Source of the DNA: a virus
Lineage: Duplodnaviria > Caudoviricetes
Strand: one strand, 5' to 3'
Virus record (IMG/VR): IMGVR_UViG_2597489997_000001
Location: 160,001-224,000 of that record
Length of the DNA stretch: 64,000 nt
Shown: positions 18,283 to 47,560 of the stretch, piece after piece
How the letters are laid out: each line of letters begins with the position of its first letter
How positions within the stretch are numbered: position 1 is the first letter of the stretch
Position numbers and translations under genes: made by a program
The notes under the pieces: generated by a model
Seen by the model: only the letters and a program-made list of their open reading frames with translations
What the model was told of the DNA's origin: nothing
Databases searched by the model: none

Positions 18283-18319
18283 ACATAATAGAGAACCTAC
18301 CCATTACGGGTAGGTTCTC
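18282..18319. repeat. 38-bp element, copy 2 (inverted copy of 3060-3097)
   Basis: AACATAATAGAGAACCTACCCATTACGGGTAGGTTCTC. Confidence 0.9.
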
Positions 18320-18320
18320 T
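18290..18320. terminator. bidirectional terminator between convergent blocks
   Basis: AGAGAACCTACCC-ATTAC-GGGTAGGTTCTCT between convergent stops. Confidence 0.85.
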
Positions 18321-18345
18321 AGTTTATAATCTATTCATTTTTTTT

Positions 18346-19869
18346 TTATGAGTCAATACCGACCTGTATTATCACATCTTGAGCAGGTCCGTTGTTCTCA
18401 CTCTCTTTAAAATTCAGTTGAGCGAGGTATGCGAGGAACCCTGTCGTGGGTATGTTAAACAATCCCATGGTCCTTATCCTGTATGGATCGCTCCACGGAA
18501 CATCGAGGAATACTGTTGCACCACTCGATGTATTAATGCTCCCAGAACCCGTTATCGGAGTTGGGCTTCCGTTCTTCGTTCTCTTCTGGTTTACAGTAAT
18601 CTGTAAAGAAGCAGACGTTGCACCCTTAGGAACATTGGCTGGGGTTACTACTGTACTCAATGGCTCAGGGGTGAAATTAACCACCACAGGGTTAAGGGTA
18701 TATTCCTTATTACCGGATTTAACCTTGAACACCACGCTGATTTTACCACCTGCAAATTTAGAGGAATAATCAAACGCATATACCCCTGAAGCAGGTGTAA
18801 CGGGATTCAGCCGTGTAGCAATGGAATCATAAACGTTTGTGTTCCCACTGACTACAGGTGTTGTCACAGCGGAAACAAATGTGACATCAGTAGCAGGAAC
18901 CCCATCTTGATCTACGATGGTTATCTTTCGTTCACCTACGGTGAACGTGTTCAGGCTTCCAGATTCTAATGTCGCTGATAATGTTCTCACAACTTGCTTA
19001 GCGATGTTGTAAGTAATGGTGGATGTTAGATTCCAAGTAACCCCTAGAACGGTATACTCGTAACTAAAAGTGACTTCTCTAGAAACAGCTTCGACGGAAT
19101 CATTAATCACCTCCCAAGCTCCAGTCTCTGGGGTAAAGTTAATATACTCGTCTGAAGCAGTTATGTTTTTAGCAGAAGCAGTTACGTTGGTTCCATTGTA
19201 GTTAGTTAAGACTAATGGGAAAGCTCCAGTATCCCCTAGTTTAACATCTATGGAAGATGGTGTTGCTGTTAAAACGGGCGGTAGTACAAATGTGTAAACA
19301 ACGGTTAATTGAGCATCGTAATAATTGAACTTCAGATTCCCACTGATACTCTCACCGGGATTAGGGTTAAAGTCAGGAGAGATTTTAAACTTAAGTTCTG
19401 ACGCGGTTTTGCCAGTGATATTAATGATACCGGAAGAATCGACTATTCCTAAGTCAAGACTATTGAGGTCTATTCTTTCCGTACCGTTCCAAAGAGTAAA
19501 CGGAATGGTGTATTCAACTGCTTTATCAAATCTCTCTATGGGTTCGGTAGAATCCATTTTAAAATCTGGCGGAGAAACCTCAACCTCTATACTGAGCGTT
19601 GATATGTCTTCACCCTCGACACCTTCCTCATGCCCGTCATATCCAAATGGGACCACTATCGTGTTGGTGCCAGTCGCGATACCCTTTATATGAAGATCTA
19701 TGTGTTTACCATCTTCGTTTATATCACCACCCGCGCCTTCGACGAGATCTTTGAAATCGACTTGGTCGTTGAGTGTCATAGTCTTATCTACAGCGTTCTT
19801 ACCCTCAAACAAAGCAGTAACTTGGAACATTACTGTTTGCCCTTGCAACAATGTTACTTTATTAGCCAT
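18346..19869 (-). CDS. Ig-like repeat virion fibre protein, putative terminal/cap subunit
   Basis: 507 aa, Thr/Val-rich beta repeats; starts mid-domain (KVTLLQGQ...FEGK, VEGED); no C-terminal donor-like tail. Confidence 0.7.
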   Translation of the reverse strand: MANKVTLLQGQTVMFQVTALFEGKNAVDKTMTLNDQVDFKDLVEGAGGDINEDGKHIDLHIKGIATGTNTIVVPFGYDGHEEGVEGEDISTLSIEVEVSPPDFKMDSTEPIERFDKAVEYTIPFTLWNGTERIDLNSLDLGIVDSSGIINITGKTASELKFKISPDFNPNPGESISGNLKFNYYDAQLTVVYTFVLPPVLTATPSSIDVKLGDTGAFPLVLTNYNGTNVTASAKNITASDEYINFTPETGAWEVINDSVEAVSREVTFSYEYTVLGVTWNLTSTITYNIAKQVVRTLSATLESGSLNTFTVGERKITIVDQDGVPATDVTFVSAVTTPVVSGNTNVYDSIATRLNPVTPASGVYAFDYSSKFAGGKISVVFKVKSGNKEYTLNPVVVNFTPEPLSTVVTPANVPKGATSASLQITVNQKRTKNGSPTPITGSGSINTSSGATVFLDVPWSDPYRIRTMGLFNIPTTGFLAYLAQLNFKESENNGPAQDVIIQVGIDS

Positions 19870-19933
19870 GGCGATTTCCTCGTTATGACTCCTGTGATAT
19901 ATCTCCGAAATAATGGGGACATAAAATCCTAAT

Positions 19934-19963
19934 AGGAGTATCTCCCAGATGGGAGATACTCCT
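19934..19963 (-). terminator. perfect 13-bp hairpin after the 230-aa gene
   Basis: AGGAGTATCTCCC-AGAT-GGGAGATACTCCT; followed on the - strand by TTTTATGTC. Confidence 0.75.
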
Positions 19964-19971
19964 TAGTTATA

Positions 19972-20664
19972 TTACTGTACGAACTGAACGTCGAAGCGAT
20001 TAGTCGGAATTGACCCATCGTTAATGTTGGTGTTCAGAACAACATCTGCACGCAGGGTGTAATCAACACCATCGTGATTACCAACTACCAGCAGTTTAGC
20101 GGTTGCCGTAACAACTTCAGTAGTGGATGATGCGATAGATTTAAACGCAAAGTTACCTTCACCAACCACACCGCTGAACTCAAACTTATCCATAATTGCA
20201 TCTGGATCGACACTAACGCCGGTGATGGTGTTGGATATATCGTTCTCAGCTTCGCCTTCACCTTTAACAACTTTAAAGGTCAGAGGTTTACTTTCCCAAA
20301 GATCCATGGTAAGTGGAGTGGTAACATCGATCAAGCGAGCCAGAGGGGCGGCTGCGGTGATCGTAAGTGCTATGGTCTTCGTACTTTTACCATAGCCTTC
20401 CACATCGGAGTTAACCCCAGCATCAGCATATTTGAATACCACTGTTGCTTCTTGGGTACCTTCCAGTACACCAGTAAGTGGTACGTCAACAACACCAGCA
20501 CCGCCATCAACGAGAGCACCGATAGTAACCAGACCCTTGAGGTCAGAAGCATCGGAATCAACACTGATCTTATTCAGGGCAAATGTTTTCCCTTCAAAGG
20601 TAGGTTTGATTTGAAGAGATGCAACTGCTCCCACTTCCAATGTAAAGTCTTTGTCGGCCATCAT
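19972..20664 (-). CDS. two-domain Ig-like fibre subunit, putative polymerising shaft
   Basis: 230 aa; N-term DFTLEVGA...FEGK; C-term IPTNRFDVQFVQ matches the end of the 939-aa protein. Confidence 0.7.
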   Translation of the reverse strand: MMADKDFTLEVGAVASLQIKPTFEGKTFALNKISVDSDASDLKGLVTIGALVDGGAGVVDVPLTGVLEGTQEATVVFKYADAGVNSDVEGYGKSTKTIALTITAAAPLARLIDVTTPLTMDLWESKPLTFKVVKGEGEAENDISNTITGVSVDPDAIMDKFEFSGVVGEGNFAFKSIASSTTEVVTATAKLLVVGNHDGVDYTLRADVVLNTNINDGSIPTNRFDVQFVQ

Positions 20665-20674
20665 TTTCTCCTGT

Positions 20675-20692
20675 TAGGGACCGAAGTCCCTA
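20675..20692 (-). promoter_or_regulatory. UUCG hairpin directly upstream of RBS (possible mRNA 5' stabiliser)
   Basis: - strand TAGGGAC-TTCG-GTCCCTA-ACAGGAG-AAAATG, no U tract. Confidence 0.6.
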
Positions 20693-20697
20693 TTGTT

Positions 20698-23517
20698 TTA
20701 AAGGAACTCAATATTAAAACGAGTAGTAGGAATACCACCCGAGTTAGGACGAGTACTCAATTTCACCTCTGCGGGGAGATCGAATACATTACCTTCATGT
20801 GTAACCTTGAACATCAGTGAAGCATAGTTAACCTGCCATTTAACCGGGTCGGCTTTAACAGATTTGAAGCCCCATGATGTATCAGAGATTTTCACAAACT
20901 CAAACTGCTGTGAAATTTCAGATGCGTTAACACAAGTAATCTCAGTCAGTTCAGAGGTAATATCTTGGTCACCTGCTTTAATACTAAATACTAAAGGCGC
21001 GGTATCCCAAAGGTCCATCTCATAACTTCCAGTCAATCCTTCTAAATGAGGACCGGTGGAGTTACCGATGGTGTACTTAATCTGAACGTTATCAGACCAC
21101 TTCATCGCCTGTTCTGGAATACGGAAGGAGAATCTGAATTCACCAGTTGCGGTAGTCTCAGGGTCCTTCTTAATAGTCCAGGTACCATCAGGCGAAACAT
21201 CAATATAGTCGTTAGGTGTTACCGACCACTCAACGGTAGCGTCTGTCAGGTCAAGACCAGGAGTCATCCTGGAAGTCACTTTAACAGGAACCTTACCGCT
21301 GTCGCCATTAACCCCAGTGATTTCACCAATCACTTCAACAGTCGGTGATGGGTTAGTCGTTTGGTGAGAAACTTTCACATCGAAGCTAACAGTACGTTCA
21401 TGATAGGTAATCGTAAAGTTAGTGATTCTCGTGTTCATCCCCTGGTCAGGAACCCACAAGGATTTAATCGTGAACCCACCTTCGATATTCTTAACAATCT
21501 CCACTTCATCCGGTTTGTTTGTCGTAACAACTAAACCATCGGAAAACATACTGATTGTATCTGTCTCTGATGTCAGTTTAAGGGTGATGTCAACCTGGTC
21601 TCCGGTTTTAACGTAAACCTGAGGAATAACATCGTCTACAGTTAAACTACCCAAACAAACTACTGACGTTTTGACTTCTACACGGTCTTCACCAATAACA
21701 CCTGTTGGGCTTCCGCCATCACGATAGAAGTTGAAAGTAATATCACCGTAGCGGTTATTCTGGAGACCTTCTACAACTACGTCATAGCTTCCATTGTCCC
21801 CAGGACCCTGACCGACAATGCTAACATGACTAGGGACTGTTGAAGTTGGCTCATCAAGATGGATAGGAATGTCAGTTCCTTCACCATTTATCGTTGGGTA
21901 GAAATTAAGCGTTTTCTGCTCACCCACTCTGAGGTTAACCTTGCTATTCCCAATCACATCAAAGTTGACAGGAGGAATAACATTAACCTGACACATCACG
22001 TCGACCCATTGGACGATATTGCCTGTGGTGTTCCAGTCCTCATCAATGGTGAATTTGAATTGTCCCGATTCCCCAACATTGCTGGACTTAATTGTCCCAA
22101 CGTAAGTACCAGGCGCTCCTTCTTTAGGAACAAACTGAGTAATGATCTCAACACCCGGACCAGATTGTTGGAGAACCAACTCACCAACTACCGGCGCTGA
22201 AGAATTATTCAGTCGTTCTTGTTTAAGAGTAACTTCTACCTGGGTATCTTTATCTACGGTAATCGCGAGTGGTGTGACAGTAGATATGACCGCTTTACCT
22301 GGAGCACTGTAAGTCAGTGTATTCAAGGTGGTTTTGAAAGCACCCAAACTTACTTTAGGAGCAACAGTAAGTTCACATGCTACAGGACCTAAATCGACAG
22401 TCCAGTAATAACGACCAGGCGTACCCTCTACAGGGAAGAAGTTCCCACTGTCGCCCTGATTGGTACCAAACAGTGGCGTGACCTGAGCGTTTAATGAGCC
22501 GTCGTAGAGAAGACCAGAAACAGGAACATTATCCTGATCGACTACATCAAACTGAATGGTGTTCTTCTTAGAAGATTCCAGCTCAGTTGATCCGACAACC
22601 TTAGCAGTGAGGGTAATGGCTTTAACGTATTCGAATTCAAAACTGAACGGAACAGTTGGGTAAATAGATGCAGTACTGTCGTTGTTGTAAGTTCCACTGA
22701 CAGTAACTTTACCAACCTCACCAGTTGATTTAATACCGAAGCTATATGTACCAGGAGTTTCAGTATTGGTTATTTGCTGACCTAACGTCGCAGGACCTTC
22801 GAAACCAGTAATTCTAACTGTTCCCACAGCTGGGGAATTAGGATCACTCGAGATTGCTTTGGTTAAGGCAAGAGTGATATCAGTTACTTCATTCAGCACT
22901 GCTGGAGCTGAATTTGGTACTGGAGTTGCAACAACCAAGGTCCCAGGGTTATTAAAGACCATATCGTCCAGGACGTAGGAATCTGTCTTATCTGGAACGG
23001 TAACGGTGAGAGTTACCGTTATCGTACCGGTTGTTTCACCAGGAGTTACTACAATGTAGTAACGGCCAGGAGTGTTAGGGTCCTGGTATATCCCACTGCC
23101 GTAAGATGTTACGACCGATCCAGTTCTTGGGTTCGTCACAAGCTTGAAATCAACTTTAGTGGCGCCGATAACTGGATCACCATTACCATCTTTCAGAGTA
23201 AAGTAAAGCTGTACGCGCTCAAAGGGAGTAAGGTCTCCAGTTGTTTCCAACTCGTAGGTTAGGACGTACGTTTCGATATGCTTATGGGTTAATGATAAAG
23301 GAACAACAACACGATGCTTTCCTTTATATGTAAAAGTTAGGTTCGGTGTATAAACAGTATCCTGTTCCACATCACCGGTAAAGGAATACGTAATCGTATC
23401 CTCACCGATGTCGGAAATCTGGACCCCTGGGGTGGGGTCCAGTGTTATTACCATTTCAGGATCTTTGTTAGATATCACCGTACCATTAACACTAGCGGCT
23501 TGCTTAAGTGTTTTCAT
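20698..23517 (-). CDS. Ig-like repeat fibre protein, putative adaptor subunit
   Basis: 939 aa; N-term homologous to the 1859-aa N-term (SNKDP...IGEDTITY); invasin-like DGNGDPV / DQDNVPV motifs. Confidence 0.75.
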   Translation of the reverse strand: MKTLKQAASVNGTVISNKDPEMVITLDPTPGVQISDIGEDTITYSFTGDVEQDTVYTPNLTFTYKGKHRVVVPLSLTHKHIETYVLTYELETTGDLTPFERVQLYFTLKDGNGDPVIGATKVDFKLVTNPRTGSVVTSYGSGIYQDPNTPGRYYIVVTPGETTGTITVTLTVTVPDKTDSYVLDDMVFNNPGTLVVATPVPNSAPAVLNEVTDITLALTKAISSDPNSPAVGTVRITGFEGPATLGQQITNTETPGTYSFGIKSTGEVGKVTVSGTYNNDSTASIYPTVPFSFEFEYVKAITLTAKVVGSTELESSKKNTIQFDVVDQDNVPVSGLLYDGSLNAQVTPLFGTNQGDSGNFFPVEGTPGRYYWTVDLGPVACELTVAPKVSLGAFKTTLNTLTYSAPGKAVISTVTPLAITVDKDTQVEVTLKQERLNNSSAPVVGELVLQQSGPGVEIITQFVPKEGAPGTYVGTIKSSNVGESGQFKFTIDEDWNTTGNIVQWVDVMCQVNVIPPVNFDVIGNSKVNLRVGEQKTLNFYPTINGEGTDIPIHLDEPTSTVPSHVSIVGQGPGDNGSYDVVVEGLQNNRYGDITFNFYRDGGSPTGVIGEDRVEVKTSVVCLGSLTVDDVIPQVYVKTGDQVDITLKLTSETDTISMFSDGLVVTTNKPDEVEIVKNIEGGFTIKSLWVPDQGMNTRITNFTITYHERTVSFDVKVSHQTTNPSPTVEVIGEITGVNGDSGKVPVKVTSRMTPGLDLTDATVEWSVTPNDYIDVSPDGTWTIKKDPETTATGEFRFSFRIPEQAMKWSDNVQIKYTIGNSTGPHLEGLTGSYEMDLWDTAPLVFSIKAGDQDITSELTEITCVNASEISQQFEFVKISDTSWGFKSVKADPVKWQVNYASLMFKVTHEGNVFDLPAEVKLSTRPNSGGIPTTRFNIEFL

Positions 23518-23536
23518 GGTGACGATTTAATCCTTA

Positions 23537-26500
23537 TTAACTTGGGAGGACGGAACTCTGAGTTAAGGTTAAAGGATGGTCCTTATCGCCTTCACCAGAA
23601 GTTTGGAATCCTTCCGAGAGTACCAGAGCAACTGATGTACTTTGTTGTGTCACTGTTAATGGACGATTCACCACTTGCGCGGCATTAGTACCAATCTTCA
23701 TGCTATAATCAATAGAGGTTTGAACGACAGTTTCATCGAATACTTCCCCTTTGAATCTAACTTTGAAGCTCGTTGGGGTTAGAGAATTAGGAACCATTTC
23801 GATAGCTGCATTATCTTTAACAGTTACCGATACGACTCCATTATTATTGGTAGTTGAATTATCCAGAGTTAATGGGGAAGAGCCATAACGCATGTCAGCG
23901 TGAATTTCAATCTCATCACCAAAGACACCGGTGATGGCTGTTTCGGTCTGATTAACGTTAGTGGTGTTAGCGGTAAACGTAGTGATAGGGATGGTCAACA
24001 CTGCGTAATCCACACCTTCCACTGAACCCGTTGCACCCGTTCTGGTGAAGGATATGATATTTGGGATAGCTACTGAGTTGCCTGGCTGTATTGGGCAGTC
24101 GTATAACTTAGTGTCACCCATGAAGTTCACACCTTCAATGGATTTGATATTGCCAGCCACCAGAATTTCCTTAACGGTAAATCCAGGGTTGCTAGATATC
24201 TTCTCACCTCTGTACCAGCCACTGACATTTATCCTTGCTGTTCCGCCTGCGGCCACAGTAACGTCACCACGAGGTGTGCCCGGGTTCATCAATTTAAGAA
24301 TGAACTCGGCACCGTCGTATTCAGCAATATTAAAGGTACCCGATGCATTACGAACAACACTATCGCCAGTGAGCTGATAAGTGAAGTCGGTAAGAACGGA
24401 AGTAGCCGGAATCTCAGTCGAGGAAGTGATTAACCAACCCGCATCTTTCTGAACAACATGGTCATTAGGAACAACCTTCAGATTAGTTACACGGCTAGTA
24501 AGATCAGTGGTTCCTTCCATTACTTTAAATGGAGGGGTGGTTCCAAAATCCCAAACTTTAACGCCCACAGGTGCATCAGTTACAGTAAGGTTATACTCTC
24601 TAACGACTGGAGCGGTTACTGTGAATGGATACTTCCAATTACCCTCATCAGTAATCGTCCCTGTGATCACTGCGTTCCCACTTGTCACCAGATCAAGGAT
24701 GATCCCGTAATATCCATTCTCATCCAATGCCAGTAACCCGGCGTTACTACCACCTGTTACAGTAATTCCACTGAGAGTCCCATTAGGGAACGTATACGGT
24801 GCTTCCACCCCATAGCGTTTCTGATCAAGTTTGAACTTGACCGTTACCTGATGGTTTTCATCTGCGGTGTAAGAAGGTGCATCTAACGTAGGTGTGACTG
24901 GAGATTTAGGTACGACAATGGTCGTATCCAATGACACTCTACCGCCTGAGTTTGGAGAGGTAACGGCACCTTTCAAGTTTAAGGTGTCTCCAGTATGCCC
25001 TGCGGTAAATTTCAATATCAGTCCATCAGCATCGTCAGGGTCATTAATGACACTATAACCTTCAGAAGCAATCATCGCATTACCATTACTCGGAGCCGGT
25101 ATAAGTTTAGGGTTATACACTACAGGTGTTGTTAATGCGGTAGAACCAACCCGTAGTTTGAACTTAAGCTCATTCTGAGTTGCCGGTGTGGCAGTAACTG
25201 TTTCAGATGTTACAGCTATCCCTAAATTTCCTGATGTGGCATAAACCCAGAAGTTAGAGTCGGTAGCTGGAGGCGGTGATGGTGTCCAATCCTTACTACC
25301 TTCAGGGGTACTATAGTACGCTCTAATCGGGTTGAAATACCCCTCAGTCCCTCCGAGGGTTGGTCTGGTGATTCTACCCCATACAGTGGTTCCTGTTCCA
25401 CCCACCCATTCCCAGGCTATGTTACCATTGGTGTTACCGGTCGCCTGACCAAAAATACTGTACATCGTAAGTTTGGTGTCTTCTAGCGGGATTCTAACAC
25501 CGTTAAGAATTGCGTAGACTATCGCTGCCGGACCAGTCCTTGATCCGCTCCTCATGTATGTAACTTCGTTTTGCCGACCAGTGAAACACCAACCAACGTT
25601 ATACATGCTGAGATAGTCACCGTTAATGAATCCAAGATCGGATGACCTGGTAACAACATCTTTACCTTCAACTGTTCCCGGAGTACCCTTAACCTTATAC
25701 TTAACACCAGTGAGTGTTAAAGGCGTTGCCTGCTTATTAGGTGATGCATGAGTAGCTCTAGCCCTAAGCGTTATTGTCAGTGTTTTATTATCTTCGGAGG
25801 CTTCTTGTTTAACTAAGGTAGTGTATCCACCCAAGGTTCCGCCAAGATCTGACAATTCAACTTTATCTGCGGCAGGTTTGCCTTTATATATAGGATAAAC
25901 TATAAAGGTTGTATCCTGAGCGATGGAGGCTCCGATCACCTCAGTAGGTTTAATGATTTCTAAAGTGACCCCATTCCAAGCAGCCAACTTAAAGGTAGCA
26001 GTTACCTGAGAGGTGAACTCTTTACCATCAACCTCAAAGGTCAGGTTAAATGTGGTCTTAACGTCACGAGCCGTTGTTTCGGCTGTTTCAACATACCACA
26101 GTTTTCCACCTTCGGTATCCGCAGTGATGTAAGTGTTAGGGACCATCTCAACTTTCTTGAGTTTGTCACTAGCATCTTCGCCGGCTGCGTTGGTGATGGT
26201 AAATGGTAATTCATCACCAGACTGCCAGATAGAAGTGGAGATAGGTTTGTCGGTGTAAACCAGATCTTTAATCAGGTTAGGTTGAACAGTAACATTGATA
26301 TCCATGGTGTCAGATTTACCGCCATAAGTGACAGTCATCTTAACAGGATAGCTCGTTTCCTGAAGAACCTCTTTGATTATCTTACACGTTACATCGGTAT
26401 CAGTTAAGAAACCTTTGCGCTCCAGGATATCGGCCGGAGCAAACGTATAAGTGATCCCAGTTGTAGCTGGTTTCAGTTCAGCGCCATTCCAGGTCAACTG

Positions 26501-29116: not shown

Positions 29117-29149
29117 TAGTTACAGTTCCTTTATTACAGGGTTGCTAGT

Positions 29150-32100: not shown

Positions 32101-35100
32101 TGGTGGTGTCACCAGCGCCTGTACCTTTAATGAGAACTTCCTGATCCCATTCGATAGTAGCGTTGATTAATCTAGCATTGTAATAAGGGAGATTCAATCT
32201 CATCTTAACAACAATGACTTGATCTTCACCACGGTTATCCGCAAGGATTTTAATTCTTGCAGTAGTGGGTGTTACTGGCGCAGCTGTTTTTAGTACCTCA
32301 ACCAAAGTTCCATTGGTAAGAACACTGAAACCAAATTGGTTACTCTGTGCTCCAGGCAAGCTGTTTCGCTCAATGTTGAGACCCATACTTAACGGAATAG
32401 GGATATCAACAATATCGTCCTTTTTACCTTCTACCTGTACAGGCGGAATGTTATCAGGGAACCAATACAGCTTCTCCTCATACCCCACCATTTCACTGGT
32501 TTCTTCAATGATTACCTTGTTCTTCTCAGGATCTGGATCAGCATCTGGTCCGGTATAATAAACCGGATACCGTACTTTACCAATAAACTGACTGATTACT
32601 TTAAAGGAGAATACACCCCAGTTAGCCGGGCTGTTAGACCCACGGGTAGCAAACTGCAAGCCTGGGTTCAATTGCTCGAACTCAGCTTTAGGAATATCCC
32701 ATGTTGACAGGTTATTCATACTAACACTTCTTCCCTTATATTCCAACAGCAGGGACATACCTCCTGTCTGGTTATAAGGAATTTGCCTATTGCCAACACC
32801 GCTAAAGTTAGTCACTACCAGATCTTTACCATCCCAAGCTTCGATGGTAAACGGAACCTCTGCTTCCATAGGGAATGAGCGAACACCGTCAGTGAATGTG
32901 AAGATATACTTCGCAGTCAGCTGCTTCTCAGTTGGATCTGCTTTCACACATGTCCAAAGAGCACTAGGGTCCTTTTTATACTCAAGGTATCCGTCTGATT
33001 CGAGAACGGCATCATTCATCCAACCAGTGGTATAGGTCGGGGTAATTACCTGACCCTGATAACTAACTTTAAATCCAGCAGCACCACCACTCTTATACAT
33101 CCTGGTAGTTTGCGGAGTTATCTCCACAATTTCGGGAACTGGATCAACACCACCAGTACCTTTGATCAATACCTTTTGATCATACTCAAGAGTATAGGTT
33201 CTCCCAGATACAGGAGACCATGACAAGCGAATAGGTAAGACAGTCTCAATATCGGAACCAGTGTTGTTATACGCGATTTTGATAGTGAAGAAGTCAAGAC
33301 CTTTATCGTTAGTGCCGGTGCTGATCGTAGCAAGTGCGGTATTCAGACTGGTGACAGTAAATGTCTCGCCAGCTGTGTTGCCCGCCATGTTGACTTGGAT
33401 TGCAGGACCGAACATTAAACCATTGGTAGGAACTTTAACCGATGCCTGATATGCACCTGAAACCTCAGCTGGAGGAAGATCATCTTTCCATGTCAACTTA
33501 GGATCAAAGGCAACATACTTGACAGGTATCTCGGCGGAGTTCTTTTTGTCGGTACCCAATGGATATCCGTTAATCGGAGACGTGTTAGCAGAGTTCCAAT
33601 TCCACTCTAACCCTAACTTACCAAGATGCTCCCCTACCTTGTTGGCTTTAAGCTGTGCGTTTACTGAAGTACCATTACCACCGCCTGACTTCCAAGTATA
33701 GATTCCATCAGACGTAGAGTTAATTTTACTTTGGTTAACAAGAGCCGATGCGTTAGATATAGGAGCGTTAGTAGCGACTAGTGTGTTAGGTACGTAATTT
33801 GCACCAAGTGCTCTCCCCACAAGAACGACGGAACCTGAATAACTATCAGCGGCGCTATAAGGGAATGCAATGATTAAATTACCATCTTGGTCGTATACCG
33901 CAGGTTTTGCTTGACCACCGACGTTCTGATGGAACGCCTGAAGCGTTTGGACTTCAATCTTGAATTGGATTTGGTCCCAAGCAACAGTGCTAACCTTCTG
34001 AACAACAGTTAGATCTTTAGTCCCATAACGGGCAGAAGTTCTAACTTTGAAGGTCAACTCAACTTCTGAATCTGCGACGTCACACTTAAGCAGTAACCAC
34101 GTAGGTCCGGCTGTCCAAGCTACACCACCCCAACTACCCGCTGAAGCGCCCGCAGTACCAACGTTCAGTTTGGCAACAGCCTCGGTATTTTCGTCACCAA
34201 TGATTCCATTAGGGCCTGCAACGGAAATCAAAGTAACGTCAGTGGCTGTAATGTCTACATCACCGGACATCACTTTAAATGGCAGGTTATAACGACGGAA
34301 GACCAGTTTCGGATCACCAGGGTTCGGAACAGTCTCCAACTCAGGAGTCATCGTTACAGCTGGCTTCACACGGTTTACAGCATCGCGACCTTCTTCAGCC
34401 GGTAAAAGCTCGGTATACCAAACAAAGTTCATCACACCGTTATAACTGAGTTTAGTCTTCAGTTTCAGGTAAGTGATTCCGGCGTCTACTCTCTGACCCA
34501 TGACTTCAAAGTACTTAGTCAATGGTTCATTAAGGTTAGCCGTCTTTGTCTCGTCTACTGCAAGGTAACCTGTCAAGTGAGGTTTGCCGTACAGAGCTAA
34601 TCCGAATGGAACTTCAAACTCCTCACCGACCTTCTTAGTAAGTTGAGTGAATGTATTCGGGGTACACGTAAATTGCGCAATCGGTCCCGGCCAGTTCCAG
34701 TTGGTATCAATAGCAGCCGTGCCATCCACCCAACCACCACGGAATGGTGCTTTGAAAGTGAATACGTGATCTTTGTAAGATCCGGCTGTGTCGCCTGGGG
34801 CTTTACCTATGATGAATAACTGGTTCTTTGATGTCGCTGGGAAATCTGGGTTCAGTATCATCCAACCGAACTGGTCTGGCGTAGGAGTCAGCGTGAGGAA
34901 TTGACATTGCTCACTAATATCAACGCCATTAGCTCTGATCCAGTTAGGGATCTTGACAGACTTATATAAGCTATCATAAATCGAGAAACCGCCAGATCTT
35001 GGCTGCCAGCGTGGATAGTCATCCGGGTCCTGAATCTGAACACGTTGTTCAGCAGTTCCTTTATGCACACGGTTAGTAGCCGGGTTGGTGTACACGAACT

Positions 35101-38100
35101 CCAACAGAGTTCCGAAGATCTCTTTTGGTTTATCCAGAGGAGCTGTGATCTCGTAGGTCATGTCAGTAGCAGAACGAGCAGTAATTCTGAAGATATCCTC
35201 ATTGGCCGGTGTAATGGTCAAATCAGGATCGTTCAGAGGGATGCTCTTACCAGATAACACAACACGGTTGTTACCTGAGCTACGGATGTCCTGGTTACCA
35301 GCTAAGATTGGGTTCGTCAGTCCAGTGATTACCAGTGGAGGTGTGACTATTTCCAAATCAAAGTTAACAACAGCATAGTCCAAATCAGCAACACCAGGAG
35401 TAGGTCCGCCAGCACGTCTGAACGTGATAGGGATCGTCTCTTTGCCAGGATCCAGAGCACGGCAGGTATAGGTAGTCGTAGTACCGTTAGTGGTAACGGA
35501 CTTAACTTCCATCAGCCCTTTCCAATCGGTTAATGTTTCATCGATCAGGTTAGTGGTCTGAATAGTGGCACGGTAGCGCTGACTAACGGTGAAAGTAAAA
35601 TCAGTATCAACGTTAGGGGTAGCTGGGTTACCTGCTGTGAATGCAACGCGGAATGTTCTTCCATCCCAAGGTTCAACCCACCAGAAGGTATCGATGTCAG
35701 CAGTGTACTCCCAGTTACGATACGTCGCGTAGAAACGGAACGGAACGACCTGGTTAGCAATACCACCTACTTCAGAACCTTCGACAGTACACTGACGAGT
35801 CAGCGTGTTGTCAATCCATACGTATTTGCCTTTACCCGTTTCGGTATAGTCGATACGCTGTAATGGATATGTGGTGTTAACAATAGTAGTATCAGCACAA
35901 GTCAGGATCGGAGAAACAACCTGTGAAGACCACATTGTCTTAGGTGTTACTGAGCTACCAAATGTGTTACCACTGAGCGCTGTCGGCTTAGGCGTCGTAT
36001 AGCTCATTGGAATTTCAATACGTCTGGTGTAGTTCGTACCACCAAATCTGTACGTCACATTTAAGAAGTCAGACACGTTAACAGTTTGGCCTGGAGCAAC
36101 TGGACCGAACAGTTCATAGTCGAATGAGTCAGCATGCCACGTTTTAGGATTCAGAACAAATGCGTTAGGCATTGTAGAGGCGCCAGTCTCACGAGTGATC
36201 GTCAGGTTCCCAGCAGCAATCTCTTTCTGAATATCCAAAGGTAACAGACCGAACAACAGTTCGAGTTTGTAAGTACCTGTGTCTTTGTGAGTCCCTGTTA
36301 ACAGGTTATCACGTTCACCTACTTCTAACGTCAGTTCACCCAGAACACGAGTATCAAGAGTTAACTCTACAACGTCACGTGGTTTAGGATTAGTACCGGC
36401 GTCAGGAGACCAGAAGACTACCTTAGTCTGAGCAACACCACCTTTCTTACCAGTAAAGGTAATCTCGTGGAGAATGCCATTGACGATAGCTTGCTTCACT
36501 TCCACTTGTGCTGGAATGGTTGACAGGTCTTGTTTAAAGGTAGCGCGAGAACCAACGTTCTGATCTTTATAGACAGGGCGGAAACTCAAGGTCACATCAG
36601 AGTCAATACCAGTTTCGATCTTACTCGGCGTGGCAATAACTTTAAACCGTACAGAGGTAGAGCCTGTGATGCGGAATGTGGCTTCAAATGCGATGACTTG
36701 CAGTTCAGCAACAGCGTCTACTTTATAGTAAGCGCGCATCGGAATGACTTGATTACCTGTGGTCGGTTCAGCACCAATGATTTCATAACCACGTGGTGGG
36801 GTCAGTTCCACATACCTGTTATCCGGGGTGACCAGTTCAAAGTGGTCAATGGCTACCGCTGATTCAGGTGTTTTAAGACCTTGCCAGAAGCTACCTTTAT
36901 CCCAGATGTTAACAGCATGGTAATCATCGTTGTTGGTTACTTCAACTTCACCCATGGTAATTTTGGCTGTGAAATTGAAAGATGCAGTCTTAGGTGTTGG
37001 AGCACCTACTTCGTACTCGATGTCGAGTACGAAGTTAAAGGTTTCAATACCACCAGGAACGTTGGAACGCTCACCTTTGATATAGATACCGTTAGAAGAC
37101 TTACCACCAACAGAAACGTAGTTATCACCTGCTCCATTCAGACCAGTGATTGTGTACTTCAAACCAGGGGCGTTCGCAGGGAGGTCATACTCACCATACT
37201 TCAGATTCAAAGTAAGGAGGTCGGTACCTTTCCAGAACATCTCTGTCTTATCACCATGATCGCCTAAGGTAAAGACTTCATCGCTTGAAACAGACTTGAC
37301 TGGAACTGTTAACGTTAACTGGTCCATGCCTTCCACTGGAGTAGCTCCAGCAGTTGCCATTTTAAATACAAACTTAGCAGTGTCTTCTGCTTGACCTACC
37401 AGGGTGTAAGTTACCTTACCAGTCTCTGGGTCATACGGAAGAACAGCCAGGTTCTTTGGAATCACAGTGTTGGTGTCATCAAGGACTGATTCAGTATACG
37501 GCTTACCTTTGTAAGTAAACTCGAACTGAAGGTCACCCGCCATACCAGCTTTACCATCTAACTTCAATGGTGCAACTTCACCTTTATAGTCAATACCGTC
37601 GAACTTAGCGATATCGAACAACACAGATGCGTCAATGGTTCTTCTTAAACCACCATTGTCATAAGTCAGCGTTAATGGTAATGACGCCTCGATTGGTTGG
37701 GTTTTGGAACCCTGAACAACGTACCAACCTTGTGGTTCTTCAAATGCAATATAAGGACTCGTACCACGTGGAACGTATTCCTGAATCTCCACGTTAAGAC
37801 CACGTTCATCGGCCAGACGAATTTTAATATCGCCATAGTCGTAAACGTTAACGTTCTCAACTGGGTTACGTTGAATCTCTACACGAGAGATACGAATCGT
37901 CCCAACCTGATCAAGAACTACGGTCTGCGGCTGACCAGTACCAACATCATTCCAAACGAGAGTGATCGTTGTCGGATACGTGTAGTCAGTGTCTTCATCC
38001 CCGCCTGCATCGAGAGAAAGCAGCAGTGATTCACCACGCATTTCAACTACGGAGATCGGATCAGCATCACCAGCATCGAAAGTAACTGACAGATTAGCGT

Positions 38101-41100
38101 TAGTCAATTCGATTGGAGAGCCAGAGACATTGAGCACCAATGGATATTCGATTTGATCTTTGTAGAAGCCCTTAAACGTTTCTGGAGCTGTTACAACGTT
38201 CAGACCATCTGGCCACTGTACTTTAGTGGTGATAGGTGCTGAGATTGTTTCAGAGCCTTCTGTACGTTTAAACACCAGGTTCATCGGATATTCCCCACCA
38301 CGAGTAGTAGTGTAGTTAATCACGAAACCTTTACCTTCCACAAACATACCGTTATCTAACAGTTTGATTGTTTCAGGAATGGTGCTAGAAGCTAATACAA
38401 GTTCGATCTTGTCGGTTACGTCGTTACCTTTATATACAAAGTTGGCAACAATTTCACCACCTTCAGATGACTTAACATCGATGGCTTTTGGATCGTAATC
38501 AATACCGAAGGTAATCTGATCCCACTCGGCTAAGTTAAAGACAGCATCTGTCATGAACTCGCCTTTAGATTCACCAACTTCCCAGGTGATCTTTAAAGGA
38601 ACAGTAGTGGTGATAGCAGTTTTCTCAGCCCAAGTAACAGACCAGTTATAACGGTTCACACTGATGTAGGTATTGCCACCAGGGACAGTTACTGTTCTAG
38701 TTCCCGTTGTCCAGTCTTTCGTACCAGCCATAAGCTTGATAGGGAAAGAACCGGTATCCCAGATCTTGGCATCGATAGGTTGCTTATCGTATTCCAGTCT
38801 CAGAGGAGGGAAGGTAATCAGTGCAGGCATGATCAAGACTTGCTTGAACGTGTTGACTGGATTCAGTGGATCGGTATACTCAATGGTCAGTTCTGTACCG
38901 ACGTTATAAGTACGACCTACGAAACGCCACAGGTTGTCAATGACACGCAGGTGATCTTCTTCACGAGAAATAATCTCAACGTCAGAGACTTTAGTTTTGG
39001 TAATCTTCAGAATAGGATCGTTCAGAGGAACGTTAACACCTGCGAATTCAAATACAGGTTTGAACTGTCCTTCCTCTTCTACATTCATAGCCAAATTAGT
39101 TGGCCACTCAATTACCTTGAATGTACGAGCCTGTTCAATCACTGCACTAAACAGAACAACACCACGCTGCTCAGGTGCGGGTACCAGGATTTCCTTCTTA
39201 GCAAATGCGTAGCGGCCAGCGCCAGTACCTGCCTTCATCTTGGTATAGTCAAGTTCGAGATTACCAGTGGCATCATTGAACTTCAGCGCATTGAACTTCA
39301 GTTGTTCTGGAACAGAAGAGTTAGCGTCAACAATTCCGACCAGTTCTGAAATATCAACACCTTCTTCGAAGACCTTGAATTCCAGTTTGCCTTTCTCATC
39401 TGTTTTACCTGTGATGGAGAAACTAGATGGAACAGCAACAACCAGGGTGTTCTCGCCATCTTCCCCGCCACCACCTTGAGTATACTTTCTAACAACAAAG
39501 TCTTGCTCAAATGTAAAGCGAGTGTTAACGCCATCAATTACTACGAAGAACTCAAACTCAACTTTGACAGGTGTGTCTTCTGTCTTACTGGCCTGAAGCA
39601 CACGCCAGGTGTTGGGAGCTTTAGGTTCATTATAGATGTATCCGTTATCACCAACAACGGCCAGGTTCTTAACCAGTTCAGTTTGGTTCTCGCCATTCAA
39701 CATAAAGGTGAATGTAGTCTTACCAGTCTGGTAACGGTCAACGAACAGTGGTGTTGGACCTGGGACAACTTCATAGACAGAACGACGTTTGACTTCAACG
39801 TTGATCGTGTATTCCGGAGCATAGCGAACACCACGAGGGTCAACCCACGTTAATGTCTGTCTAAAGCTATCCAGAATAGATTGGCCGTCTATATCAGAAT
39901 CGCGTAACAGTTTGAAACGCACACCTTCATCGGTTACTTCGAGGAACTCGATTAAGCGTTTATCACCTTTGACTCCAAGTTTAATACCCAGTTCTTTAGG
40001 TGATACTACTTGAGGTTCTTCTTCATCAGGTAATCCGTAAACTGCCTGGATGATCATCAGACCTTCTTCGTCTTTATAGCCACGAAGTGAAGTCATGATG
40101 CTGGTAACACGGAAGGAAGGTTTGACTTCTGGTTTAACAACGATCATGTTCACAAAAGCCGGAGCTTTATAAAGTGTTCCTGAATCGCTGTACTGGAAGT
40201 CAGCACGATACAGCTCAGTATCTTTATCCCAGTTCACTGGTAGATTACCGGTGATTGCACCACGGTAAGTCATAGAGCCATCTGGTAGAGTCTCGACATA
40301 AGCCAAGTTACCATATTTCTTCTTAGACTCAAATTCAGTAGCTGGGATGTTCAGAGTAACTGGATTACCCTGGAAGAACGCCTGAACGTTAACTTCAACC
40401 ACGTCACCTTTAGATGCAGTGATCTCGGCAGGAGTCACCACAAAGGTCAAATCCAACTGTTCATCTTTCTCGATGATAACTTTGATACGGAAAGTCTTCT
40501 TAACCGGACGACCCATGTACATGTGAGTAACACGTACCACGATGAAGTCAGTCACTTCCTTATCAGTCGCACCGAAGATCGTTTCACCCTCAATGGACAG
40601 TTTGTCATCAGAACGTCTCGGAATGGTGTAACCCGAATCAGTAGTGATGTCAACCTGAGCAGTCATGGTGATATCTTCTACACCACCGAACCAATAGGTG
40701 TTCGGGATGTTGAAGTCTTTACCACGGCTAGAGGTGATTTCGGTTGGGAGGTTAGATGTAATCTCAGGGAGCATCGCTTCGGCTTTAACCAGTTCATAAA
40801 TGAACAGCGGGAATTCACCCATACCGAATGCCGGATCAGTTACCTTAACCGTACCGGATTCTAACGTATCGTAATCGATAGAGGTCAGAGACTCACGAGT
40901 AGAAGTATAGGTATTAAAGAACAGCCCACCGAAAGCTTTTTGCATGCCAGACATGGTCTTGGCGTTTTCTTGGTTGAGCAGAACACCGTAAGTATTCTTA
41001 TAAGTCAACCAAAGCAGTGTAGCTTCAACATCATCGTTTGCTTTAGCATATGCTTTAAGTTCGTCAACATCATTGATCTCAACAAAAGGAACAGCGAAGT

Positions 41101-41389
41101 CCTCAAGGATCTCTTTAATGGTAACGCGTTTAACTTCAACGTCAGCACGAGCAAAGCCAGTCTTACGAGATACGATACAAACACGGACGATACCATCCGG
41201 AAATGAGATTGGGTCTTCAATAACAAGATCACCCGCAATCAAACCGGTGTAACGTTGCCGAGCAAGTTCTAACTCGTCATTAGGATCATCGATCTCAAGG
41301 TCAGCAATACGCTGCTTCAGATATTTGATCACAGGAGTGAATAAAGGATCTTTAATCACTTTACTGTTGGTTCTTGTAATAATCGCCAT
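29150..41389 (-). CDS. giant Ig-like repeat virion fibre protein with N-terminal anchor domain
   Basis: 4079 aa; about 12 copies of a WDxGxxPF...FxxxxWDG domain interleaved with two other domain types. Confidence 0.85.
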   Translation of the reverse strand: MAIITRTNSKVIKDPLFTPVIKYLKQRIADLEIDDPNDELELARQRYTGLIAGDLVIEDPISFPDGIVRVCIVSRKTGFARADVEVKRVTIKEILEDFAVPFVEINDVDELKAYAKANDDVEATLLWLTYKNTYGVLLNQENAKTMSGMQKAFGGLFFNTYTSTRESLTSIDYDTLESGTVKVTDPAFGMGEFPLFIYELVKAEAMLPEITSNLPTEITSSRGKDFNIPNTYWFGGVEDITMTAQVDITTDSGYTIPRRSDDKLSIEGETIFGATDKEVTDFIVVRVTHMYMGRPVKKTFRIKVIIEKDEQLDLTFVVTPAEITASKGDVVEVNVQAFFQGNPVTLNIPATEFESKKKYGNLAYVETLPDGSMTYRGAITGNLPVNWDKDTELYRADFQYSDSGTLYKAPAFVNMIVVKPEVKPSFRVTSIMTSLRGYKDEEGLMIIQAVYGLPDEEEPQVVSPKELGIKLGVKGDKRLIEFLEVTDEGVRFKLLRDSDIDGQSILDSFRQTLTWVDPRGVRYAPEYTINVEVKRRSVYEVVPGPTPLFVDRYQTGKTTFTFMLNGENQTELVKNLAVVGDNGYIYNEPKAPNTWRVLQASKTEDTPVKVEFEFFVVIDGVNTRFTFEQDFVVRKYTQGGGGEDGENTLVVAVPSSFSITGKTDEKGKLEFKVFEEGVDISELVGIVDANSSVPEQLKFNALKFNDATGNLELDYTKMKAGTGAGRYAFAKKEILVPAPEQRGVVLFSAVIEQARTFKVIEWPTNLAMNVEEEGQFKPVFEFAGVNVPLNDPILKITKTKVSDVEIISREEDHLRVIDNLWRFVGRTYNVGTELTIEYTDPLNPVNTFKQVLIMPALITFPPLRLEYDKQPIDAKIWDTGSFPIKLMAGTKDWTTGTRTVTVPGGNTYISVNRYNWSVTWAEKTAITTTVPLKITWEVGESKGEFMTDAVFNLAEWDQITFGIDYDPKAIDVKSSEGGEIVANFVYKGNDVTDKIELVLASSTIPETIKLLDNGMFVEGKGFVINYTTTRGGEYPMNLVFKRTEGSETISAPITTKVQWPDGLNVVTAPETFKGFYKDQIEYPLVLNVSGSPIELTNANLSVTFDAGDADPISVVEMRGESLLLSLDAGGDEDTDYTYPTTITLVWNDVGTGQPQTVVLDQVGTIRISRVEIQRNPVENVNVYDYGDIKIRLADERGLNVEIQEYVPRGTSPYIAFEEPQGWYVVQGSKTQPIEASLPLTLTYDNGGLRRTIDASVLFDIAKFDGIDYKGEVAPLKLDGKAGMAGDLQFEFTYKGKPYTESVLDDTNTVIPKNLAVLPYDPETGKVTYTLVGQAEDTAKFVFKMATAGATPVEGMDQLTLTVPVKSVSSDEVFTLGDHGDKTEMFWKGTDLLTLNLKYGEYDLPANAPGLKYTITGLNGAGDNYVSVGGKSSNGIYIKGERSNVPGGIETFNFVLDIEYEVGAPTPKTASFNFTAKITMGEVEVTNNDDYHAVNIWDKGSFWQGLKTPESAVAIDHFELVTPDNRYVELTPPRGYEIIGAEPTTGNQVIPMRAYYKVDAVAELQVIAFEATFRITGSTSVRFKVIATPSKIETGIDSDVTLSFRPVYKDQNVGSRATFKQDLSTIPAQVEVKQAIVNGILHEITFTGKKGGVAQTKVVFWSPDAGTNPKPRDVVELTLDTRVLGELTLEVGERDNLLTGTHKDTGTYKLELLFGLLPLDIQKEIAAGNLTITRETGASTMPNAFVLNPKTWHADSFDYELFGPVAPGQTVNVSDFLNVTYRFGGTNYTRRIEIPMSYTTPKPTALSGNTFGSSVTPKTMWSSQVVSPILTCADTTIVNTTYPLQRIDYTETGKGKYVWIDNTLTRQCTVEGSEVGGIANQVVPFRFYATYRNWEYTADIDTFWWVEPWDGRTFRVAFTAGNPATPNVDTDFTFTVSQRYRATIQTTNLIDETLTDWKGLMEVKSVTTNGTTTTYTCRALDPGKETIPITFRRAGGPTPGVADLDYAVVNFDLEIVTPPLVITGLTNPILAGNQDIRSSGNNRVVLSGKSIPLNDPDLTITPANEDIFRITARSATDMTYEITAPLDKPKEIFGTLLEFVYTNPATNRVHKGTAEQRVQIQDPDDYPRWQPRSGGFSIYDSLYKSVKIPNWIRANGVDISEQCQFLTLTPTPDQFGWMILNPDFPATSKNQLFIIGKAPGDTAGSYKDHVFTFKAPFRGGWVDGTAAIDTNWNWPGPIAQFTCTPNTFTQLTKKVGEEFEVPFGLALYGKPHLTGYLAVDETKTANLNEPLTKYFEVMGQRVDAGITYLKLKTKLSYNGVMNFVWYTELLPAEEGRDAVNRVKPAVTMTPELETVPNPGDPKLVFRRYNLPFKVMSGDVDITATDVTLISVAGPNGIIGDENTEAVAKLNVGTAGASAGSWGGVAWTAGPTWLLLKCDVADSEVELTFKVRTSARYGTKDLTVVQKVSTVAWDQIQFKIEVQTLQAFHQNVGGQAKPAVYDQDGNLIIAFPYSAADSYSGSVVLVGRALGANYVPNTLVATNAPISNASALVNQSKINSTSDGIYTWKSGGGNGTSVNAQLKANKVGEHLGKLGLEWNWNSANTSPINGYPLGTDKKNSAEIPVKYVAFDPKLTWKDDLPPAEVSGAYQASVKVPTNGLMFGPAIQVNMAGNTAGETFTVTSLNTALATISTGTNDKGLDFFTIKIAYNNTGSDIETVLPIRLSWSPVSGRTYTLEYDQKVLIKGTGGVDPVPEIVEITPQTTRMYKSGGAAGFKVSYQGQVITPTYTTGWMNDAVLESDGYLEYKKDPSALWTCVKADPTEKQLTAKYIFTFTDGVRSFPMEAEVPFTIEAWDGKDLVVTNFSGVGNRQIPYNQTGGMSLLLEYKGRSVSMNNLSTWDIPKAEFEQLNPGLQFATRGSNSPANWGVFSFKVISQFIGKVRYPVYYTGPDADPDPEKNKVIIEETSEMVGYEEKLYWFPDNIPPVQVEGKKDDIVDIPIPLSMGLNIERNSLPGAQSNQFGFSVLTNGTLVEVLKTAAPVTPTTARIKILADNRGEDQVIVVKMRLNLPYYNARLINATIEWDQEVLIKGTGAGDTTIPKNITNPTVDVWQIGAALFDIEHNGKAVSLNQYKSVTVKQNDYVRTNPDYNPANPRTVVWEVYNGTAAGVVTPVTFIAVFNDGFKDVTLEVTSQFTIRPYDGKEFAVELHTPNAFNGGMVTTVGAQGTFYVKGSYRTRAMVAADLGVKYGVWAKNITMPGHTLKLQGAGAGASPSFQPVYTTAGATDMMASEDGYFLFGLLSKENDPNAVENVDYVKVKLPCYVYYSDKYYPRTDVVQPTAVEGRYSPTNALKYPLAFSIRYGLTPVVLTHGGASWVKGPLITSNGANVTTTQISVWFESELTTDPKITKDALIGFGKVGGEDKFAWFTVAATQISNITFPEVEDVQEVTASLGDTGPLPFKVTLDGVDKTSTVTLTTISANDYIGLVDGKWQVLNAPAADTDVVVKMTVSVPSGASAVNLSTDVTFHLKAWDGNFIVTDVKSIDGKVWDKGTELPFKVKTAIGGNEIPAKWITGISVVSPNNRVEAGPLITKPWKIIAGDQTQAVTEEVTYTITVNSGKVTKSPTQKVLFNIGKYDGIELVLRVTGDGNNGNTMAVSSGGGNNATLRVAGIYKGEPVSSLTHVALGQGGSMSGPTVYAGTGPALIYQFTPNRNAHAASWIDVTAKVTGSTDPKQQAKIRVPISIYSSPAYIFIEGPNAVTGKLGDELTVNVIGYTSNTRLDYSEAKNGITFLPAGVIEYVPGSGKVDSFKVRFLADVDSAVHTVISTTVAAKTPPIYSGKFDLSVTQQPAATPEITDVQDVVAKIWDKGELPFKVMFKGNDITADCTLTGISANSYVRKGEGNTWEVYDAATAESTVMPEFTVTYGTGIDLVTLKQTVKFTVKGWNGKLLKPVAEDSVGVVGKTGQIHIGGSFGDGKLYPDTTVDIATIDGKGIITVTKVEKATDDGLLLTYTGDVVGTEDITVRVKAIVDSGNAIEGSDFADVTLNVRILPATLTPSDDFETDVIGDVYHPATVKQSVSA

Positions 41390-41468: not shown

Positions 41469-41499
41469 AGAGTCTACCGGGGATGACCCGGTAGACTCT
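41469..41499 (-). terminator. terminator hairpin
   Basis: AGAGTCTACCGGG-GATGA-CCCGGTAGACTCT, after the 1265-aa gene. Confidence 0.75.
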
Positions 41500-47484: not shown

Positions 47485-47530
47485 CTTTACAACTCCAGAT
47501 TGGTTGTTGGTTACCCAAGGGGCATAGGAT

Positions 47531-47560
47531 CCTCCCACACCCCGTTAGGGATGCAGGAGG
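47531..47560 (-). terminator. 13-bp hairpin after yfaE, with CATAG/CTATG flanks
   Basis: - strand CCUCCUGCAUCCC-UAAC-GGGGUGUGGGAGG (three G-U pairs fix the strand). Confidence 0.65.

Follow-up and report, generated by a model that had tools for sequence, protein, structure and literature searches.

Subunits of chaperone-usher pili (Fim, Pap) lack the last (G) strand of their immunoglobulin (Ig)-like fold, for which the N-terminal extension of the neighbouring subunit serves as donor, and the order of adaptor, polymerising and terminating subunits follows from the specificity of these joints. In type V pili (FimA/Mfa1) of Bacteroidia, strand exchange takes place after removal of an N-terminal strand, the place of which is filled by C-terminal strands. 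Self-assembly by donor-strand exchange is also described, in the accessible part of the respective study, for the beta-sandwich protein TasA, which forms a biofilm fibre of Bacillus subtilis (PMC9674648). As for phages, the excerpt available on the adhesion device of Tuc2009 reports a BppU-BppA crystal structure, in which a C-terminal extension of BppU (~25 residues) forms a beta-hairpin completing the sheet of the Ig-like (titin-like) sandwich of BppA (PMC4742702), and the available part of the work on the lateral fibre of DT57C describes N-terminal strands of LtfA that augment complete sheets of the collar protein LtfC (PMC10713586). Here, we analyze five consecutive genes in a 64,000-nucleotide (nt) stretch of viral DNA (Caudoviricetes; positions 160,001 to 224,000 of IMG/VR virus record IMGVR_UViG_2597489997_000001), subsequently designated the window, which encode proteins of 4079, 1859, 939, 230 and 507 amino acids (aa). 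With a probability of roughly 0.6, these proteins are segments of one non-covalent head-to-tail chain that is held together by completed split Ig-like domains, the binding itself being predicted.

In the proposed chain, each joint would be an Ig-like sandwich to which two polypeptides contribute strands, the first strand(s) coming from the C-terminal tail of the upstream member and the remainder from the N-terminal head of the next protein. The order would come from two joint classes without shared sequence, reading 4079 aa (anchor...tail 1) > 1859 aa (head 1...tail 1) > 939 aa (head 1...tail 2) > 230 aa (head 2...tail 2) > 507 aa (head 2, no tail). The roles that a first-pass annotation of the window had assigned to the five proteins, i.e. 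anchor plus donor 1, acceptor 1 plus donor 1, adaptor, acceptor 2 plus donor 2, and cap, fit this module content. Since the 1859-aa and 230-aa proteins each possess head and tail of one class and are hence self-compatible, they could enter the chain more than once. We infer that tails bind their heads without cross-reaction between classes and that the chain would hang from the virion by its N-terminal anchor domain, which is common to two other proteins of the phage. The head-to-tail chain is the best reading in view of the cognate junctions, the unsplit class-1 homologues, the conservation of the modules and the tails that are free in structure models; together with class-2 heads that appear short of one strand, these findings bear out part of the overall proposal of the first-pass annotation.

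Like chaperone-usher pili, the chain would rely on Ig-like folds completed by a neighbour's strand and on joint specificity for its order, but polarity is opposite, as here the N-terminal strand(s) would be missing and the C-terminal tail would act as donor. Neither a PapD-type chaperone nor an usher was detected: PF00345 and PF00577 had 0 matches in the 284,757-base-pair (bp) genome of which the window is part (G000), while control genomes were matched, and none of the five proteins matched Pfam Fimbrial and related models. With type V pili the chain would share the C-terminal donor and an N-terminal strand place that is filled in the next subunit; it would differ in its giant multi-domain subunits, of which only the end domains are split, and in assembly, which would be cytoplasmic. 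Of the traits of type V pilins, there is no Pfam FimA/Mfa match, no signal sequence or lipobox at the N-termini as read directly, and no evident protease step. The Tuc2009 joint, as far as described in the excerpt, resembles the proposed ones in that a C-terminal donor completes a partner's Ig-like sandwich within a phage adhesion device; it is, however, a single joint attaching an accessory protein and has its acceptor at the C-terminal part of BppA, whereas here a series of classed joints would order several giant proteins and the acceptor is N-terminal (PMC4742702). Sequence relation to BppU or BppA was not found, nor did the five chain proteins match any PHROG family. The DT57C pair is similar in so far as terminal fibre strands augment beta-sheets of another virion protein, but according to the part of the report at hand these strands are N-terminal, no domain is cut and there is no serial chain (PMC10713586). 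TasA, again as far as covered by the accessible text, differs in being a bacterial homopolymer of one small subunit (PMC9674648). The first-pass annotation knew of no such logic in a phage virion fibre. Given the solved BppU-BppA structure, the logic of split-Ig joints is not wholly unprecedented in phages (PMC4742702), but our search of the literature on strand complementation and exchange in phage fibres yielded no multi-gene Ig chain ordered by several joint classes.

Inspection of the translations confirmed that all five open reading frames (ORFs) are open on the minus strand at the coordinates given in Table 1, with the termini as previously quoted, and that their lengths add up to 7614 aa. 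The intergenic gaps along the chain measure 33, 19, 33 and 102 nt. All four downstream genes have their own Shine-Dalgarno sequence and ATG, as the first-pass annotation had pointed out. Three of the gaps are in frame and each of these contains two TAA stops, while the 1859-to-939 junction is out of frame. The five ORFs are real, separate cistrons.

The class-1 tails of the 4079-aa and 1859-aa proteins resemble each other (10/21 residues identical, E 5e-5), and so do the class-1 heads of the 1859-aa and 939-aa proteins (48% identity across 77 aa, E 1.3e-20). For searches, separate profiles were derived from split tails only and from split heads only. In 5 of 7 named relatives, i.e. N1M2, Yubaba, Survivor, pEt-SU and SXP01, both profiles meet at one internal site of the giant proteins, where the domain is unsplit. 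At these sites E-values range from 8e-13 to 2e-18 for the head profile and from 1e-8 to 2e-3 for the tail profile, and the two matches overlap by 6-8 residues. A profile of 135 positions was then compiled from the five unsplit copies. On this profile, all 12 heads begin their alignment at positions 42-45 (E <= 3.4e-15). Tails fall inside positions 2-51 in 11 of 13 cases (E < 0.01), and two tails gave no significant match. Specifically, the tail of the 4079-aa protein corresponds to positions 2-49 (E 1.5e-15 and 4.8e-12), the head of the 1859-aa protein to positions 42-135 (E 1.7e-20) and its tail to positions 24-50 (E 3.1e-3). P0060, a protein of 5283 aa kept out of the profile, likewise carries an unsplit copy (E 4.3e-38). 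Because both profiles fall on the same unsplit site, and in view of P0060, tail 1 and head 1 are, by homology, one domain with one strand kept in each half: a stretch of ~8-9 residues (P.T[LV].Q..) is present both at the end of tail 1 and at the start of head 1. The idea that joined class-1 tails and heads match an intact domain, and that the boundaries fall mid-domain, therefore holds in these five relatives; what has to be amended is that the cut is not clean, its ~8-9 residues being doubled, and that the intact example formerly placed at residue ~1063 of the 4079-aa protein has no match to the unsplit class-1 profile at a domain E <= 0.05.

A peptide motif on both sides of the class-1 gaps, together with three of four gaps being in frame, could also indicate readthrough or ribosome hopping, by which one fused polypeptide would be made and the doubled strand would mark take-off and landing sites. 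The motif, however, uses different codons on its two sides, two consecutive TAA stops stand in each in-frame gap, one junction is out of frame, and the gaps of relatives vary from 14 to 137 nt by their annotated coordinates, making such a fusion extremely improbable.

At the class-2 joint, the C-terminal domain together with tail 2 is related between the 939-aa and 230-aa proteins (33% identity, E 6.3e-14), as is head 2 between the 230-aa and 507-aa proteins (32-33% identity, E 3e-5 to 6e-5). Together with its 23 homologues (221-229 aa), the 230-aa protein forms a family of 24 sequences, in which 11 of the 46 invariant columns are located inside the last 21 residues (LNTNINDGSIPTNRFDVQF), and the tail is thus the best conserved stretch of the family. 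Among 1.84 billion representative proteins, a class-2 profile retrieved 40 relatives; in 31 of 31 proteins whose best match reaches the tail, the match to tail 2 ends <=2 residues from the C-terminus. As to the head-2 domain type, 7 of the representative proteins have it at the N-terminus and 4 at an internal position. Both these internal copies and 25 internal copies obtained with a domain profile are preceded by a short first strand of their own, which in 14 of the 25 lies behind the closing [WYF][DN][GQ] motif of the preceding domain. Aligned to a profile of intact tandem junctions, 17/17 class-2 heads start at positions 42-49, just past the first strand (E <= 9e-4), the head of the 507-aa protein covering positions 42-83 (E 2.1e-4). 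These alignments support the view that the first strand of the intact domain is absent from class-2 heads. The class-2 tails stand at the place expected for this strand, straight after an N.G motif; as a first strand they fit by position only, and three of them matched an unrelated part of the intact-domain profile.

The database representative P0036 (3635 aa) has a whole unit of the 230-aa type fused to the C-terminus of a giant protein. The unit comprises a head-2-type domain, a second domain and tail 2, and its head-2-type domain has its own first strand; judged by this architecture, P0036 represents the class-2 joint region in a naturally unsplit form.

Junctions were surveyed in 12 genomes, comprising the window, seven named and cultured jumbo phages (Kc263, N1M2, pEt-SU, AH04, Yubaba, SXP01 and Survivor) and four uncultured contigs. 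A profile scan of viral contigs gave 5 loci, including one that was treated as duplicating pEt-SU, while a scan of viral contigs with a single protein as query gave 0 loci; a metagenome scan gave 1 locus, near-identical to L013. Every genome possesses either a giant gene of ~3,400-5,100 aa or a 2,400-3,000-aa ORF leaving the fetched stretch, followed by 2-5 smaller genes encoding 62-3124 aa, so that chain proteins overall range from 62 to >5000 aa. At 34 of 35 gene junctions the tail is followed by a head of its own class. Tail 1 (..GF.T.G.G....P.T[LV].Q.....*) is followed by a gene opening with head 1 (M.TLKQ...V.G...SN.DP..VI.LD), and tail 2 (..N.G.IPT.RF.V.F.*) by a gene opening with head 2 (MADK......G......IKPTFEG). 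Yubaba, N1M2 and SXP01 have a third class, in which tail 3 (..G.S...PFKV...*) precedes head 3 (..KQS..VPF.V); this joint likewise carries a strand on both sides (..PFKV twice). Across the whole G000 genome, head 1 is confined to the N-termini of the 1859-aa and 939-aa proteins and head 2 to those of the 230-aa and 507-aa proteins.

Several relatives are of interest in their own right. The database representatives P0054 and P0055 (201-202 aa) are minimal adaptors in which head 1 and tail 2 enclose a single Ig-like domain; this demonstrates that joint modules can make up nearly the whole of a protein. The annotation of the Shewanella phage SXP01 leaves a gap in which a further open frame (1523 codons, L010:11913-16484) is found; this frame opens with head 3, closes with tail 1 and is a tandem paralogue of the preceding 1533-aa gene. 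The frame of the 1338-aa gene N1M2_161 of Klebsiella phage N1M2 extends ~200 codons upstream and has the head-3 motif at its start (L005:15355-15970); the annotated start of this gene probably lies too far downstream.

Mean pairwise identity of head 1 is 58%, as compared with 24-34% for the remainder of the adaptor proteins. By this measure, the joints are under selection, as conserved modules between variable segments. The same data bear on the possibility that the genes are decaying remnants of one giant ancestral gene that was interrupted by frameshift or nonsense mutations, without reassembly of the products. Such an origin could account for the unsplit versions of the class-1 domain and for the in-frame state of three window gaps, but across 12 diverged genomes the cuts fall at the same places, a ribosome-binding site and a start codon accompany each of them, and the modules flanking them are the best conserved parts. 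In addition, each in-frame gap has a pair of TAA stops, and the conservation of the 230-aa family suggests purifying selection on the downstream proteins. Decay is accordingly very unlikely.

Variation at the class-2 joint would also fit contact between its two sides. In a Yubaba-like lineage, the tail changed from ..NRF.. to ..PEF.. (Arg to Glu) and the cognate head from ..FEG.. to ..FRN.. (Glu to Arg). In the Serratia phage Yubaba itself (L004:20001-24829) ..PKPEFDVEII replaces ..IPTNRFDVQF at the end of the tail and ..PTFRN replaces ..PTFEG in the head; the variant joint also occurs in P0044, P0046, P0050 and P0067. Among representative clusters, it was seen for the tail in three and for the head in one. 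The Arg/Glu swap across the joint looks compensatory.

Structures were predicted with AlphaFold2. The model of the 230-aa protein (24-row alignment; predicted local distance difference test score, pLDDT, 89.4) consists of two Ig-like domains (about residues 1-105 and 108-212), followed by residues 213-230, which have no secondary structure and drop in pLDDT from 75 to 62. A Foldseek comparison with solved structures retrieved tandem Ig domains including titin Z1Z2 (E 6e-9), a match which agrees with chain proteins being tandem Ig-like. The strand list gives seven strands for the first domain, from which it appears to be an I-set-like sandwich without the A strand. In the full-length model of the 939-aa protein (23-row alignment; pLDDT 79.9), head 1 (residues 1-78) adopts a fold whose mean scores per block are 68, 80, 88, 86, 82, 84, 86 and 83; its first ten residues form strands of the lowest confidence in the domain. 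Residues 923-939 are unstructured, with pLDDT down to 44 and residues 934-939 below 50. Class-2 tails that are free yet conserved in both monomer models are what would be expected of a strand buried by a partner.

A number of observations weigh against the chain. For both head domains, a confident fold is predicted in the absence of any tail (pLDDT 80-95), and in the models they are not obviously incomplete. The first-pass annotation would have counted heads complete on their own against a split domain; as a prediction, the confident lone fold neither proves nor refutes the need for a donated edge strand. The claim that class-2 tail plus head equals an intact domain stands on the side of the heads, whereas in none of the 21 tails (12 aa) did the segment behind the N.G motif align significantly with the first strand of the intact domains. 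The duplicated class-1 strand is left without explanation by a simple donor-strand picture, as one position cannot hold two strands. In pEt-SU, Kc263 and SXP01 (3/12 genomes) the chain stops at a 222-229-aa protein with tail 2 and no cap, and a simple model does not account for this free tail at the chain end. The one non-cognate junction of the 35 is found in SXP01, where two paralogous head-3/tail-1 genes lie in tandem, indicating that gene order is not always assembly order. Finally, the charge swap is one event in one lineage, and, turning to the virion, the operon adjoins nrdB and is not part of a recognisable structural module. In the text available of the N1M2 paper tail fibres are described as not visible, and the accessible parts of the papers on N1M2, Kc263, ZPAH34 and SXP01 contained no mass spectrometry of particles; the Kc263 paper, as far as available, mentions visible fibres whose nature it does not state.

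Lone folding of the heads, the unpaired tail 2 in three genomes and the class-2 tails that do not align with the first strand would all suit independent appendages, in which heads dock elsewhere, at a common virion site or another one, and tails act as assembly signal, chaperone handle or ligand-binding element. Yet it would then be hard to see why tail 1 and head 1 adjoin and overlap within one domain of unsplit homologues, why tail class predicts the class of the next head at all junctions but one, and why heads of either class are found nowhere else in the genome. We consider such appendages unlikely and retain the head-to-tail chain.

Attachment of the chain to the virion would depend on the anchor domain. 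Over its N-terminal ~175 residues, the 4079-aa protein shares homology with the 200-aa protein (E 1.1e-33) and, at greater distance, with the N-terminal part of the 729-aa protein (E 8e-14). The stand-alone gene has been conserved, at ~200 aa, across 31 phage records, Aeromonas jumbo phages among them. No match was obtained for the anchor in Pfam or PHROGs, and none that was meaningful in sequences of solved structures or usable in the ESM Atlas. The domain is a putative virion anchor. In phages, long strings of Ig-like domains typically belong to decorations or fibres exposed on the virion. A chain built by strand completion could alternatively serve in a structure inside or on the infected cell, in keeping with the position of the operon after nrdB, away from structural genes, and with the lack of known relatives of the anchor. 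This is rather unlikely in light of the usual exposure of Ig-like strings on virions and of the closest structural matches outside the family among viral models, which include tail tube and minor capsid proteins and tip attachment protein J. Moreover, direct reading of the five N-termini revealed no signal peptide, which argues against export, and an early-type promoter motif is absent from the operon strand. This motif, TTTYARRYAKATATTATY, is published as promoter-like for the phage group (PMC7058600); it occurs 5 times in the window against 0.2 expected, always on the plus strand (3123, 49184, 55967, 60754 and 63642), and a scan of the window found none in the fibre operon. Its confinement to the plus strand puts the operon in another expression class. 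A particle proteome is reportedly included in the paper on phage OBP. OBP has been named as the closest relative of N1M2 (PMC7058600).

The doubled class-1 strand, at profile positions 42-50, may point to a strand-exchange step and would fit a type V-style displacement of an N-terminal placeholder. The class-1 joints, and in relatives those of class 3, might be chaperone-free strand-exchange devices in which the incoming tail displaces this placeholder, a tentative proposal that we regard as possible but doubtful. The head's own copy of the common strand would keep the fragment soluble; the tail would bring the common strand plus two missing edge strands and displace the placeholder by zipping in. 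Three classes that do not cross-react would amount to a small assembly grammar for a filament of ~70 Ig-like domains, in which self-compatible 1859-aa and 230-aa units would allow variable length and caps would end growth.

Family searches placed none of these proteins. Pfam gave three sub-threshold matches only, to Invasin_D3 (20.9 bits, cut-off 33), PM2 spike and CshA_NR2, and nothing for the 4079-, 1265- and 729-aa proteins; PHROGs gave no family for any chain protein, the anchor domain or the 1265-aa protein. By sequence, none of the five proteins belongs to a pilin, Pfam or PHROG family.

Table 1. Position of the chain genes, their joint modules and neighbouring features in the window
Feature	Coordinates	Strand	Description
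4079-aa protein	29150..41389	minus	N-terminal anchor of ~175 aa (about 40862-41389), tens of Ig-like repeats, class-1 tail
4079-aa class-1 tail	about 29153-29299	minus	last ~48 aa
1859-aa protein	23537..29116	minus	class-1 head and class-1 tail
1859-aa class-1 head	about 28832-29113	minus	residues 2-95
1859-aa class-1 tail	23540-23674	minus	last ~45 aa
939-aa adaptor	20698..23517	minus	class-1 head, assorted beta domains, last Ig-like domain, class-2 tail
939-aa class-1 head	23269-23517	minus	residues 1-83
939-aa class-2 tail	20701-20751	minus	residues 923-939
230-aa protein	19972..20664	minus	class-2 head domain, second Ig-like domain, class-2 tail
230-aa class-2 head domain	20344-20664	minus	residues 1-107
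230-aa class-2 tail	19975-20028	minus	residues 213-230
507-aa candidate cap or tip	18346..19869	minus	class-2 head (about 19555-19869), no tail module
729-aa protein	45349..47538	minus	further upstream in the operon; anchor domain present in diverged form; lacks head and tail modules
200-aa protein	55289..55891	minus	anchor domain standing alone
1265-aa beta-rich protein	41509-45306	minus	located between the genes of the 729-aa and 4079-aa proteins; lacks head and tail modules
Terminator-like hairpin	about 41469-41499		between the 1265-aa and 4079-aa genes
Small UUCG-loop hairpin	20675..20692	minus (plus in the stem-loop listing)	immediately precedes the ribosome-binding site of the 230-aa gene
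Perfect 13-bp hairpin	19934..19963	minus	between the 230-aa and 507-aa genes; no canonical U tract on the minus strand
Terminator-like hairpin	18289..18321	minus	end of the operon

In DNA and proteins, the genome containing the window is similar to jumbo myophages of 250-277 kb, namely Kc263, N1M2, pEt-SU, AH04, Yubaba, Sureiya, SXP01 and Survivor. The operon on the minus strand runs from nrdB (47821-48954) through the 729-aa and 1265-aa genes to a terminator-like hairpin, and then through the 4079-, 1859-, 939-, 230- and 507-aa genes to a second one. Hairpins also lie on both sides of the 230-aa cistron, of which the perfect 13-bp stem downstream may set the product ratio of the 230-aa and 507-aa genes.

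Provided that the joints function as proposed, this phage group would make a filament of >7,600 residues from separately translated pieces that fit together by sequence-coded plug-and-socket joints. This would explain how very long, diversifiable fibres can arise without one enormous chain to translate and fold, and how segments and tips can be swapped between phages. For protein engineering, the joints would be of possible use as natural, orthogonal connectors. Should strand exchange operate as tentatively proposed above, the chain would represent a cytoplasmic, phage-encoded counterpart of pilus biogenesis.

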